Of a stretch of 64,000 bases of DNA, positions 1,947 through 52,841 are shown one piece after another (the first letter of the stretch is position 1; each line of letters starts with the position of its first letter). The translations under genes were made by a program, and so were the position numbers. The stretch lies in the NCBI RefSeq assembly GCF_003334765.1, contig NZ_QOWT01000015.1; one strand, given 5' to 3'. Below the pieces are notes generated by a model. It made no database searches. It saw only the letters and a program-made list of their open reading frames with translations, and was not told the origin of the DNA. This stretch comes from Escherichia coli (lineage in GTDB: Bacteria; Pseudomonadota; Gammaproteobacteria; Enterobacterales; Enterobacteriaceae).

Positions 1947-3269
1947 ATGCAAGCCTATTTTGACCAGCTCGATCGCGTTCGTTATGAAGGCTCAAAATCC
2001 TCAAACCCGTTAGCATTCCGTCACTACAATCCCGACGAACTGGTGTTGGGTAAGCGTATGGAAGAGCACTTGCGTTTTGCCGCCTGCTACTGGCACACCT
2101 TCTGCTGGAACGGGGCGGATATGTTTGGTGTGGGGGCGTTTAATCGTCCGTGGCAGCAGCCTGGTGAGGCACTGGCGTTGGCGAAGCGTAAAGCAGATGT
2201 CGCATTTGAGTTTTTCCACAAGTTACATGTGCCATTTTATTGCTTCCACGATGTGGATGTTTCCCCTGAGGGCGCGTCGTTAAAAGAGTACATCAATAAT
2301 TTTGCGCAAATGGTTGATGTCCTGGCAGGCAAGCAAGAAGAGAGCGGCGTGAAGCTGCTGTGGGGAACCGCCAACTGCTTTACAAACCCTCGCTACGGCG
2401 CGGGTGCGGCGACGAACCCAGATCCTGAAGTCTTCAGCTGGGCGGCAACGCAAGTTGTTACAGCGATGGAAGCAACCCATAAATTGGGCGGTGAAAACTA
2501 TGTCCTGTGGGGCGGTCGTGAAGGTTACGAAACGCTGTTAAATACCGACTTGCGTCAGGAGCGTGAACAACTGGGCCGCTTTATGCAGATGGTGGTTGAG
2601 CATAAACATAAAATCGGTTTCCAGGGCACGTTGCTTATCGAACCGAAACCGCAAGAACCGACCAAACATCAATATGATTACGATGCCGCGACGGTCTATG
2701 GCTTCCTGAAACAGTTTGGTCTGGAAAAAGAGATTAAACTGAACATTGAAGCTAACCACGCGACGCTGGCAGGTCACTCTTTCCATCATGAAATAGCCAC
2801 CGCCATTGCGCTTGGCCTGTTCGGTTCTGTCGACGCCAACCGTGGCGATGCGCAACTGGGCTGGGACACCGACCAGTTCCCGAACAGTGTGGAAGAGAAT
2901 GCGCTGGTGATGTATGAAATTCTCAAAGCAGGCGGTTTCACCACCGGTGGTCTGAACTTCGATGCCAAAGTACGTCGTCAAAGTACTGATAAATATGATC
3001 TGTTTTACGGTCATATCGGCGCGATGGATACGATGGCACTGGCGCTGAAAATTGCAGCGCGCATGATTGAAGATGGCGAGCTGGATAAACGCATCGCGCA
3101 GCGTTATTCCGGCTGGAATAGCGAATTGGGCCAGCAAATCCTGAAAGGCCAAATGTCACTGGCAGATTTAGCCAAATATGCTCAGGAACATCATTTGTCT
3201 CCGGTGCATCAGAGTGGTCGCCAGGAACAACTGGAAAATCTGGTAAACCATTATCTGTTCGACAAATAA
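1947..3269 (+). CDS. xylA: Xylose isomerase (440 aa)
   Basis: ORF track 1935..3269; protein [16 protein letters not shown]... with conserved xylose isomerase sequence throughout; start placed at the second ATG, which has a GGAG SD 7 nt upstream. Confidence 0.95.
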
Positions 3270-3340
3270 CGGCTAACTGTGCAGTCCGTTGGCCCGGTTA
3301 TCGGTAGCGATACCGGGCATTTTTTTAAGGAACGATCGAT

Positions 3341-25470: not shown

Positions 25471-26490
25471 ATGTTGCAGTTTATTCTCCGACGTTTGGGA
25501 CTCGTCATCCCCACGTTTATCGGTATTACCCTTCTCACATTTGCCTTTGTCCACATGATCCCGGGCGATCCGGTGATGATCATGGCGGGCGAACGTGGGA
25601 TCTCCCCAGAGCGTCACGCGCAGCTGCTGGCTGAACTCGGCTTAGATAAACCGATGTGGCAGCAGTATCTCCATTACATTTGGGGCGTTATGCATGGCGA
25701 TCTAGGCATTTCAATGAAAAGCCGCATCCCGGTTTGGGAAGAGTTCGTGCCGCGCTTCCAGGCCACGCTGGAACTTGGCGTCTGCGCGATGATTTTTGCT
25801 ACGGCAGTCGGTATTCCGGTCGGCGTGCTGGCTGCGGTTAAACGCGGTTCCATTTTCGATCACACAGCGGTTGGCCTGGCGCTGACAGGTTATTCAATGC
25901 CTATCTTCTGGTGGGGCATGATGCTGATCATGCTGGTTTCGGTGCACTGGAACCTGACGCCCGTCTCCGGTCGCGTGAGCGATATGGTGTTCCTCGATGA
26001 CTCCAATCCGTTAACCGGTTTTATGCTAATCGACACCGCCATCTGGGGTGAAGACGGCAACTTTATCGATGCCGTCGCCCATATGATCTTGCCTGCCATT
26101 GTGCTGGGTACTATTCCGCTGGCGGTCATTGTGCGTATGACACGCTCCTCGATGCTGGAAGTGCTGGGCGAGGATTACATCCGCACCGCGCGCGCCAAAG
26201 GGCTAACCCGCATGCGGGTGATTATCGTCCATGCGCTGCGTAACGCGATGCTGCCGGTGGTGACCGTTATCGGCCTGCAGGTGGGAACATTGCTGGCGGG
26301 GGCGATTCTGACCGAAACCATCTTCTCGTGGCCCGGTCTGGGACGCTGGTTGATTGACGCACTGCAACGCCGCGACTATCCGGTAGTGCAGGGCGGCGTA
26401 TTGCTGGTGGCGACGATGATTATCCTCGTCAACTTGCTGGTCGATCTGCTGTACGGCGTGGTGAACCCGCGTATTCGTCATAAGAAGTAA
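25471..26490 (+). CDS. dppB: Dipeptide ABC transporter permease (339 aa)
   Basis: ORF track; MLQFILRRLGLVIPTFIGITLLTFAFVHMIPGDP...; ABC permease signature region present. Confidence 0.96.
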   Translation: MLQFILRRLGLVIPTFIGITLLTFAFVHMIPGDPVMIMAGERGISPERHAQLLAELGLDKPMWQQYLHYIWGVMHGDLGISMKSRIPVWEEFVPRFQATLELGVCAMIFATAVGIPVGVLAAVKRGSIFDHTAVGLALTGYSMPIFWWGMMLIMLVSVHWNLTPVSGRVSDMVFLDDSNPLTGFMLIDTAIWGEDGNFIDAVAHMILPAIVLGTIPLAVIVRMTRSSMLEVLGEDYIRTARAKGLTRMRVIIVHALRNAMLPVVTVIGLQVGTLLAGAILTETIFSWPGLGRWLIDALQRRDYPVVQGGVLLVATMIILVNLLVDLLYGVVNPRIRHKK

Positions 26491-50912: not shown

Positions 50913-51842
50913 TTATGCTGGCATCGCCTCACGCGGGATAATCGCGCCGCGATACTGAATAACGGTACTTGCGGTCAGGTGCCCACGTTTCGCCGCGTCT
51001 TCCGCGCTGCCGCCTGTCAGACGTACCGCCAGATAACCGGCACTGAAAGAGTCGCCAGCTGCGGTGGTATCGATCACTTTTTCTTTCGGCAGTTTCACCG
51101 CCGGAACATCCACTAACCCTTCGCCAGCAATGGACACCAGGCAAGAATCCGCCCCGCGTTTCACCACCACTTCTTTCACGCCCGCGTTATGGGTGCGCGC
51201 AATGACGTCTTCCACCGGCTGTTGACCCCACAGCGCGTCTTCGTCGTCCAGCGTCAGGAAGGCGATATCCGTGCATTCCAGCATTTGTTGGTACACCTGC
51301 TGTGTCTCTTCTTTGCTGGCCCACAGGCGCGGACGATAGTTATTGTCGAAAATCACTTTTCCGCCGTTGGCGCGGCATTCGCGCAGCAGGGAAAGCAGCT
51401 TTTCGCGGCTGGTCGGGCTTAAGATCGCCAGGCTAATCCCGCTCAGGTAGAGATAATCGAAATTCGCCAGCTCTTCGCAAATCGCCGCAGACTGCTCACT
51501 CTCCAGCCAGAATTTGGCGGCGGCTTCGTTCCGCCAGTAGTAGAACGTACGCTCGCCGGTGCTGTCGGTTTCAATGTAGTAAAGGCCCGGTAGACGGTTT
51601 TCCATCCGTTGGGTCAGGGAAGTATCAACGTTCTCGCCGTGCCAGGCGTCCAGCATCTGCTGGCTAAAACTGTCCGTTCCCAGCGCCGTTACGTAATGAA
51701 CGGTTAATGCCGCAGGATCGACCTGACGGGCGATATAGACGGAAGTGTTCAGGGTATCGCCGCCGAAACCGCGCTTAACGTCCGCGCCTTTCTCGGAAAG
51801 CTCAATCATGCATTCGCCAATCACGGCAATCTTTTTGGACAT
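50913..51842 (-). CDS. kdgK: 2-dehydro-3-deoxygluconokinase (309 aa)
   Basis: ORF track 50913..52190; start placed at MSKKIAVIGECMIELSEKG... (PfkB ribokinase-family N-terminus); the 116-codon upstream extension is treated as spurious because it spans the divergent promoter region. Confidence 0.92.
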   Translation of the reverse strand: MSKKIAVIGECMIELSEKGADVKRGFGGDTLNTSVYIARQVDPAALTVHYVTALGTDSFSQQMLDAWHGENVDTSLTQRMENRLPGLYYIETDSTGERTFYYWRNEAAAKFWLESEQSAAICEELANFDYLYLSGISLAILSPTSREKLLSLLRECRANGGKVIFDNNYRPRLWASKEETQQVYQQMLECTDIAFLTLDDEDALWGQQPVEDVIARTHNAGVKEVVVKRGADSCLVSIAGEGLVDVPAVKLPKEKVIDTTAAGDSFSAGYLAVRLTGGSAEDAAKRGHLTASTVIQYRGAIIPREAMPA

Positions 51843-51909
51843 AGTCGTGAACCTGATCTGTAAAAAATTAGCGTTAGTTTGCGCTGTGGTGGTTTGCTGG
51901 TCAACCATA

Positions 51910-51928
51910 TTAAAACAGTGTTCCATTA
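51910..51928. promoter_or_regulatory. Putative KdgR operator (TTAAAACAGTGTTCCATTA) upstream of kdgK
   Basis: Imperfect palindrome resembling the KdgR box (AAAACA-N-TGTTTCATT), ~70-85 bp upstream of the kdgK ATG. Confidence 0.4.
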
Positions 51929-51998
51929 TTTTTTTGAGCCAGAACGTATTCCTGAAAGATTCCGTTGTGGAGTGAGGAAATTTACCCCGGCCAGGCGG

Positions 51999-52025
51999 TA
52001 AAGTTCTGCCCTTACGCGCCGATAA
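51999..52025 (+). promoter_or_regulatory. Sigma-28 (FliA) promoter of pdeH: TAAAGTTC-N11-GCCGATAA
   Basis: Near-perfect match to the flagellar class 3 consensus TAAAGTTT-N11-GCCGATAA, ~50 bp upstream of the pdeH ATG. Confidence 0.75.
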
Positions 52026-52073
52026 TCTTTGTCGAGTCCGGGCAGCATCACTTTTAAACACAGGACATCTTTG

Positions 52074-52841
52074 ATGATAAGGCAGGTTATCCAGCGAATA
52101 AGCAACCCTGAAGCAAGCATCGAGAGCTTGCAGGAACGGCGTTTTTGGTTGCAGTGTGAGCGTGCTTACACCTGGCAGCCGATCTATCAAACATGCGGGC
52201 GGTTAATGGCCGTGGAGCTATTAACGGTGGTCACGCATCCCTTGAACCCTTCGCAACGCCTGCCGCCGGATCGCTATTTTACTGAAATCACCGTCAGCCA
52301 TCGGATGGAGGTTGTGAAAGAGCAGATTGATTTGCTGGCGCAAAAAGCCGACTTCTTTATAGAGCACGGCCTGCTGGCATCGGTCAATATTGATGGCCCT
52401 ACGCTCATCGCCCTGCGTCAGCAACCAAAAATCCTGCGCCAGATTGAGCGTCTTCCCTGGCTGCGTTTCGAACTGGTGGAGCATATCCGTCTGCCGAAAG
52501 ATTCAACCTTTGCCTCGATGTGTGAATTTGGCCCGCTGTGGCTGGATGATTTTGGTACCGGGATGGCAAATTTCTCTGCGCTAAGTGAAGTGCGTTATGA
52601 CTACATCAAAATCGCGCGAGAACTGTTTGTGATGCTGCGTCAGTCGCCGGAAGGACGCACACTCTTTTCTCAGCTTTTACATCTAATGAATCGCTATTGT
52701 CGCGGGGTGATTGTCGAGGGCGTAGAAACGCCGGAAGAGTGGCGTGATGTTCAGAACTCGCCCGCATTCGCCGCACAAGGCTGGTTTCTTTCACGCCCGG
52801 CACCGATAGAAACGCTGAATACGGCGGTTCTGGCGCTATAA
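52074..52841 (+). CDS. pdeH: c-di-GMP phosphodiesterase PdeH (YhjH), stand-alone EAL domain (255 aa)
   Basis: ORF track 52029..52841; start at MIRQVIQRISNPEASIESLQERRFWLQ...; EAL-domain motifs (ELLTVV, DDFGTG). Confidence 0.92.
   Translation: MIRQVIQRISNPEASIESLQERRFWLQCERAYTWQPIYQTCGRLMAVELLTVVTHPLNPSQRLPPDRYFTEITVSHRMEVVKEQIDLLAQKADFFIEHGLLASVNIDGPTLIALRQQPKILRQIERLPWLRFELVEHIRLPKDSTFASMCEFGPLWLDDFGTGMANFSALSEVRYDYIKIARELFVMLRQSPEGRTLFSQLLHLMNRYCRGVIVEGVETPEEWRDVQNSPAFAAQGWFLSRPAPIETLNTAVLAL

Follow-up and report, generated by a model that had tools for sequence, protein, structure and literature searches.

The kdgK–pdeH spacer of Escherichia coli: a conserved KdgR/PlaR-type operator and a FliA promoter between divergent genes

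The divergent kdgK–pdeH locus

The window analyzed in this study is a stretch of 64 kb from the E. coli chromosome, and the region of interest within it is the spacer of 231 bp at 51843-52073, which is identical in sequence to its counterpart in K-12 MG1655 and separates two divergently transcribed genes:

50913..51842, minus strand: kdgK, 2-dehydro-3-deoxygluconokinase, 309 aa (NCBIfam equivalog NF052444, score 528 bits, cutoff 400; RefSeq agrees)
52074..52841, plus strand: pdeH (yhjH), EAL-domain c-di-GMP phosphodiesterase, 255 aa (NCBIfam equivalog NF008617, score 461.9 bits, cutoff 190; Pfam PF00563; RefSeq agrees)

The equivalog matches and the concordant RefSeq annotation establish that both genes had been correctly identified in the initial annotation, and the kdgK start codon (51842..51840, minus strand) and the pdeH ATG (52074, plus strand) bound exactly the segment that it had described as a divergent control region. 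In MG1655 this spacer corresponds to 3679188-3679418 (NC_000913.3), a window position being equal to 3731261 minus the genome coordinate. A query of 601 bases around the spacer was recovered at no less than 95% identity from 5417 of 5426 complete E. coli genomes, always from the chromosome, while 3 of the 5426 lacked any match to it. In E. coli NBRC 3301 (NZ_CP048439.1) only 52 of the 601 query bases match, and the adjoining gene is annotated as a sensor domain-containing phosphodiesterase, which suggests that a deletion or rearrangement took out the kdgK–pdeH spacer in this strain.

For the comparative analysis, species-representative genomes were scanned with a PdeH alignment, yielding 43 orthologous loci. 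In 40 of these kdgK is the divergent neighbor with its start on the contig; together with the window and a separately added Salmonella locus these make up the 42 sequences compared below. A 41st locus, that of Kluyvera genomosp. 3, was excluded because both gene matches are truncated. Here the pdeH match begins at residue 57 and the kdgK match extends to residue 207, and the locus may carry frameshifts or pseudogenes. The divergent kdgK–pdeH pair, with a spacer of about 206-292 bp, is retained in all 41 related genomes examined, which belong to two families, the Enterobacteriaceae and the Erwiniaceae.

The FliA promoter of pdeH

The part of the spacer that lies toward pdeH contains the elements of a promoter for the flagellar sigma factor FliA:

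51999..52006, plus strand: FliA (sigma-28) -35 element TAAAGTTC, supported by consensus match, matrix score and conservation
52007..52017, plus strand: 11-nt FliA promoter spacer, fixed in length and variable in sequence across species
52018..52025, plus strand: FliA -10 element GCCGATAA, invariant in 37 Enterobacteriaceae, where it ends 47-57 nt before the pdeH ATG

A near-consensus FliA promoter had been proposed at 51999-52025, and both of its boxes are present as described: TAAAGTTC-N11-GCCGATAA differs from the FliA consensus TAAAGTTT-N11-GCCGATAA by a single mismatch, with agreement at 15 of the 16 specified positions and a spacer of exactly 11 nt. It faces pdeH, with 48 nt between the end of the -10 element and the ATG, and is the sole match to the consensus with at most one mismatch in the 64 kb, where shuffled sequences predict 0.02 such matches. 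When scored with a position weight matrix derived from the stronger FliA ChIP-seq sites in Fitzgerald et al. 2014 (24 sites, yhjH left out), the site attains 23.0 bits, the top value in the window, followed by a runner-up at 15.9 bits and set against a background of -21.6 +/- 8.4. The training sites themselves span 8.7 to 29.6 bits, and 23.0 bits falls in the upper third of the 24. The next-best sites in the window, at 3297-3324 (minus strand, 15.9 bits) and 26266-26293 (minus strand, 14.3 bits), score in the range of weak ChIP-seq sites; neither of the two, when converted to MG1655 coordinates, has a counterpart in the published FliA table.

This promoter has already been characterized experimentally. 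The exact sequence TAAAGTTCTGCCCTTACGCGCCGATAAT is given by Fitzgerald et al. 2014 (PLoS Genet, PMC4183435, Table 2) as the FliA ChIP-seq site for yhjH, with a score 67-fold above threshold, and in the same study yhjH RNA stands at 511 in the wild type and drops to 2 once fliA is deleted. Their motif centre converts to the site in the window, and their ChIP-seq peak centre to about position 52042, approximately 29 nt downstream of the motif centre and close to the median offset of 25 nt for polymerase-bound FliA (PMC4183435). A decrease of yhjH by 9.6-fold in a sigma-F deletion was also reported by Zhao et al. 2007 (PMC1935009). The proposal that pdeH is driven by FliA is thus upheld by published occupancy at the exact motif together with the loss of its RNA in the fliA deletion. 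Likewise, the coupling of c-di-GMP degradation to the flagellar cascade through this promoter, also put forward in the initial annotation, is in line with reviews that list yhjH as a class 3 flagellar gene and link it to low c-di-GMP within that cascade (PMC4238805). The pdeH promoter serves as a standard reporter of sigma-FliA activity (PMC6119863).

TAAAGTT[CA]T and GCCGATAA[CT] are invariant in 37 of 37 Enterobacteriaceae, including Salmonella, and the 11 nt between them as well as the flanks vary freely, as would be expected of a functional promoter with two boxes. Within E. coli, the 51-mer around the promoter is the same as that of K-12 in 2514 complete genomes and differs from it by one or two bases in 2891. 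Three variants of this kind were sampled: all carry G at an A/G polymorphism at 52014 in the FliA spacer, and apart from this they depart from K-12 only within the spacer or the flank upstream, leaving the two boxes untouched. Beyond the Enterobacteriaceae the picture changes: in the 4 Erwiniaceae sampled, which represent Mixta, Pantoea and Erwinia, nothing upstream of pdeH scores more than 9.1 bits as a FliA site. In one of these, Erwinia persicina, a degenerate TAACGTTC-N11-GCCAATAC occupies the position homologous to the FliA promoter.

From the usual spacing of FliA promoters, transcription of pdeH is predicted to start at about 52032-52034, some 7-9 nt past GCCGATAA, which would give a 5' UTR of approximately 41 nt. 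The Cappable-seq supplements hold no entry at the expected coordinates for the 5' ends of pdeH and kdgK, those of Kim 2012 likewise hold none, and the SMRT-Cappable-seq supplements give for b3526 just a count with no start position. No stable fold was detected in the pdeH 5' UTR (z = +1.33), and an Rfam search of 51500-52500 at E <= 1 returned no RNA family. Immediately after the -10 element, at 52031-52039, there is a further block, GACGAGT[CT]C (GACGAGTCC), conserved in at least 80% of the 37 Enterobacteriaceae, which covers the predicted pdeH start and the first transcribed bases.

The KdgR/PlaR-type operator

The second element of the spacer lies on the side of kdgK:

51909..51927, no strand: KdgR/PlaR-type operator ATTAAAACAGTGTTCCATT, an imperfect palindrome centred on G51918 (23.8 bits; conserved in 42 sequences)

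A KdgR-like palindrome had been placed at about 51910-51928. The string quoted for it, TTAAAACAGTGTTCCATTA, is indeed found at 51910-51928, scores highly and is conserved; however, its symmetry axis is G51918, so that the symmetric 19-mer is 51909-51927, with the true centre one base to the left, and with 6 of the 9 arm pairs complementary the palindrome is an imperfect one. Compared with the KdgR operator consensus AATGAAACANTGTTTCATT (of the type AATRAAAYRNYRTTTYATT, an imperfect palindrome of ~17-19 bp), it shows 3 mismatches over 18 specified positions, a quality of match expected 0.07 times per window. For scoring we used a symmetric matrix built from four boxes upstream of other E. coli genes reported to be KdgR-responsive, namely kdgT (AATAAAACAGCGTTTCAAT), kduI (two boxes, AATGAAACATTGTTTTATT and AACGAAACAGTGTTTCACT) and eda (TTTGAAACACCGGTCCAAT, inside edd). 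With this matrix the operator attains 23.8 bits, a value reached in 0 of 200 shuffles, and the next site in the window 12.1 bits, a test that is partly circular in that the four training boxes were chosen by matching the same consensus. Matrix scoring, which the initial annotation had suggested as a check on both sites, places each of them at the head of the window.

The centre of the operator and the kdgK ATG are 76 nt apart. No second KdgR-type box was found in the spacer, the next best in the Salmonella spacer scoring 5.8 bits, and there is no CRP-like site in the spacer either. A CRP-like sequence, TGTGAGCGTGCTTACA, with one mismatch to TGTGA-N6-TCACA, is present at 52155-52170 inside the pdeH coding region, and the window-wide count of such sequences is that expected by chance. 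On the side of the operator away from kdgK, a block at 51929-51939 made up of seven consecutive T and then GAGC is conserved across the Enterobacteriaceae and could be an extended repressor footprint or an upstream promoter element.

Each of the 42 sequences, including those from Mixta, Pantoea and Erwinia, has a KdgR-type box at a distance of 70-89 nt from the ATG of kdgK, with scores of 11.7-23.8 bits. The 4 Erwiniaceae in which no FliA site above 9.1 bits was detected have retained, at about 2500-3150 of their loci, the divergent pair along with a KdgR box of 15.8-20.6 bits and the predicted kdgK promoter described below. This distribution points to the KdgR box as the older and more widespread of the two elements among the sampled genomes, the sample being small, with 4 Erwiniaceae.

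A predicted sigma-70 promoter for kdgK

Adjacent to the operator, the alignment of the spacers contains a further invariant block, GGTCAA at 51899-51904, which on the kdgK strand reads TTGACC. This block and a second, less constant hexamer have the arrangement of a sigma-70 promoter directed toward kdgK:

51899..51904, minus strand: predicted kdgK sigma-70 -35 hexamer TTGACC (GTCAA unchanged throughout the 37 aligned sequences; in 40 of 41 loci the distance to the operator arm stays at 11-13 nt)
51876..51881, minus strand: predicted kdgK sigma-70 -10 hexamer CAAACT (NANA[CA]T follows TTGAC[CTA] at a distance of exactly 17 nt, both in 40 of 41 loci and in Salmonella)

The forms seen at the -10 position are CAAACT, CACACT, GAGACT, GAGAAT, GACAAT and CAGACT, all of which have A as the second and T as the sixth base, and the stretch between the two hexamers is fixed in length at 17 nt and varies in sequence. 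Given that the promoter-like form persists where the hexamer sequence changes, we infer that TTGACC-17-CAAACT is the sigma-70 promoter of kdgK, a placement added by the present analysis. Transcription from it would start near 51869, with a predicted 5' UTR of ~27 nt. A generic scan of 51700-52250 for sigma-70 promoters and terminators found nothing, and it missed this candidate because the predicted -10 hexamer matches only 3 of 6 positions. The operator ends 4 bp upstream of the predicted -35 hexamer, which would put it at about -40 to -58 relative to the predicted start, an unusual place for the operator of a repressor.

An alternative that deserves consideration in this regard is that KdgR represses kdgK via another promoter, with an extended -10 element, TGTTTTAAT, on the minus strand at ~51917-51909 inside the operator, in which case TTGACC-17-CAAACT would be a second promoter or none at all. 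TGnTTTAAT is a good extended -10 element, repressor boxes often overlap the -10 region, and promoter-like features within an invariant box would be conserved by default. Nevertheless, many species have CG for TG at the extended -10 position (ATTAAAACGACG) and no -35 element is evident for such a promoter, whereas the downstream TTGAC[CTA]-17-NANA[CA]T retains the form of a promoter despite changes of sequence (GAGAAT, GACAAT, GAGACT), which would be difficult to account for if it were not a functional promoter. Hence, we regard repression through a promoter embedded in the operator as unlikely, even if it is the strongest of the alternatives considered here.

KdgR and PlaR as probable regulators at the kdgK operator

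Published evidence for the control of kdgK by KdgR comes from Northern blots in two organisms. In E. coli kdgK mRNA was found to be raised in a kdgR mutant (PMC6958661), and in Salmonella kdgK is induced by KDG and becomes constitutive upon deletion of kdgR (PMC4784465); KdgR is also the described repressor of kdgT and kdgK (PMC6892915). These mutant phenotypes bear out the control of kdgK by KdgR implied in the initial annotation, and the searched literature yielded neither a footprint nor a gel shift for E. coli KdgR at the kdgK operator. The kdgK region has also been recovered among the genomic SELEX targets of PlaR (YiaJ), an IclR paralogue (Shimada et al. 2019, PMC6958661). Since PlaR binds the kdgK region in vitro as well and has a near-identical box, "KdgR-like" was the right wording for the palindrome, and the operator is probably common to KdgR and PlaR.

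One could go further and suppose that the palindrome is mainly a PlaR operator, with KdgR acting on kdgK indirectly, for instance via the expression of plaR. The recovery of the kdgK region in the PlaR SELEX and the similarity of the PlaR box ATnTGAAACnnnGTTCAnTT to the operator would fit this proposal, and so would the rise of plaR mRNA in a kdgR mutant (PMC6958661). However, were KdgR to act via plaR alone, its loss should result in more PlaR and less kdgK, yet kdgK rose (PMC6958661). Moreover, kdgK is not named in the text of that paper among the genes raised in a plaR mutant, the induction of Salmonella kdgK by KDG needs kdgR (PMC4784465), and a KdgR-type box is kept beside this gene of the KDG pathway in 42 of 42 sequences. 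A palindrome devoted mainly to PlaR therefore appears distinctly improbable, and binding by both KdgR and PlaR is more likely than binding by PlaR alone.

Evidence for and against interaction of the two controls

According to the initial annotation the control region "combines" the operator with the FliA promoter. This is apt in that the two lie side by side in one spacer, but we found no evidence of an interaction or of an influence of either site on the other gene. The operator is centred 81 bp upstream of the FliA -35 element and ~115 bp upstream of the predicted pdeH start, and the approximately 60 bp of central spacer between the operator and the FliA promoter are its least conserved part. 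Published data are consistent with this picture, as pdeH is not included among the genes reported to be overexpressed upon a deletion that removes kdgR (PMC6892915) and kdgK is not mentioned in the FliA study (PMC4183435).

The retention of the divergent pair in all 41 related genomes could nonetheless be read as reflecting real cross-talk, with KdgR/PlaR or the transcription of kdgK tuning pdeH. We consider this very improbable; if it were true, plant-derived sugar acids would feed into the level of c-di-GMP and motility. A weaker version of the idea is that a lineage-specific FliA promoter was superimposed on an older gene pair. Since the FliA promoter is present in 37 of 37 Enterobacteriaceae and absent from the 4 of 4 Erwiniaceae sampled, pdeH may have joined the flagellar regulon, or dropped out of it, in the Enterobacteriaceae or the Erwiniaceae lineage.

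Slighter still is the chance that the spacer is an integrated bidirectional switch, in which operator-bound KdgR/PlaR also modulates pdeH or the FliA polymerase interferes with kdgK, an arrangement that would link the sensing of plant-derived sugar acids to c-di-GMP and motility. Apart from the conserved pairing, two additional conserved blocks could be counted in its favour, T7-GAGC on the side of the operator away from kdgK and GACGAGTCC after the FliA -10 element. Against it stand the distance of the operator from the predicted pdeH start, the poor conservation of the central 60 bp, and the published deletion and FliA data, in which pdeH is not reported to rise and kdgK is not reported to be FliA-dependent. 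Furthermore, the Erwiniaceae have the gene pair and the KdgR box without the FliA promoter, and therefore the two elements are separable in evolution.

Finally, that both motifs are mere chance matches in an AT-rich spacer is hardly conceivable, for although weak consensus matches are common (0.49 FliA-like matches are expected per window when 3 mismatches are allowed), the chance expectations at the observed match quality are those given above, the matrix leads over the next best site are 7 bits (FliA) and 12 bits (KdgR), and a chance origin is ruled out by the invariance of both motifs across genera with diverging flanks and by the published ChIP-seq and mutant data.

Two probably independent promoters and their significance

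Taken together, these observations are best explained by a spacer that holds two back-to-back promoters working independently of each other, a reading in which we have high confidence. FliA occupancy at the motif, the FliA dependence of pdeH and the KdgR dependence of kdgK come from the literature, and the strength of the motifs and their deep conservation from the present analysis. On the plus strand, FliA-RNA polymerase would recognize TAAAGTTC-N11-GCCGATAA and probably initiate pdeH near 52033. As a consequence PdeH, the main c-di-GMP phosphodiesterase, would be made only while the FlhDC -> FliA cascade is on, and in motile cells its FliA-timed synthesis would keep the level of c-di-GMP low. 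On the minus strand, the sigma-70 promoter predicted above would drive kdgK, with the IclR-family repressor KdgR, and probably also its paralogue PlaR, sitting on the palindrome just upstream of the -35 hexamer. From this position the bound repressor would most likely block polymerase contacts at the -35 and upstream region, an IclR-type oligomer being expected to hinder the contacts of sigma region 4 and alpha-CTD, and 2-keto-3-deoxygluconate would free the repressor from the site.

The operator and the FliA promoter are accordingly real and conserved, and both were already known from published work. The region explains why c-di-GMP is low in motile E. coli, as it places the gene of the main phosphodiesterase under the flagellar sigma factor; this FliA-pdeH circuit is a textbook one whose promoter is a standard reporter, and confirming it adds no new biology. 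What our analysis adds is the position of the kdgK sigma-70 promoter with respect to the KdgR box, as predicted from conservation, and the wider spread of this box than of the FliA promoter in the sampled genomes. It also serves as a reminder that the KdgR box may be common to PlaR.

Comparison with known systems

The kdgK operator belongs to the same AAT-RAAAC-N3-GTTTY-ATT type of imperfect palindrome as the KdgR boxes of E. coli kdgT, kduI and eda and those of the regulon in Dickeya and other gamma-proteobacteria (Rodionov et al. 2004, cited in PMC6958661). As with those boxes, it precedes a gene of the same pathway that responds to deletion of kdgR. It differs from them in that its right arm reads GTTCC, not GTTTC, in Escherichia, Citrobacter and Enterobacter, and in that it would abut the predicted -35 hexamer rather than overlap it. 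The published PlaR box is the other close relative, with a near-identical consensus and recovery of the kdgK region by SELEX; the two regulators differ in that an effect on kdgK mRNA is reported for KdgR and none for PlaR in the text of that paper (PMC6958661).

On the other side of the spacer, the site is the same as the yhjH FliA promoter of Fitzgerald et al. 2014, with the same 28-nt sequence, spacer, gene and orientation and no difference between them. A c-di-GMP phosphodiesterase under the control of the flagellar sigma factor is likewise known from Pseudomonas putida, namely bifA, with an unrelated gene and promoter context and with FliA control that is partial according to the title of the paper (PMC5300878). 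With the canonical class 3 promoters (tar, fliC, tsr, motA, ycgR) the pdeH promoter has in common the two-box TAAAGTTT-N11-GCCGATAA architecture and the strong FliA dependence. It stands apart from these in serving a signalling enzyme rather than a flagellar or chemotaxis component and in sharing its spacer with an unrelated catabolic gene.
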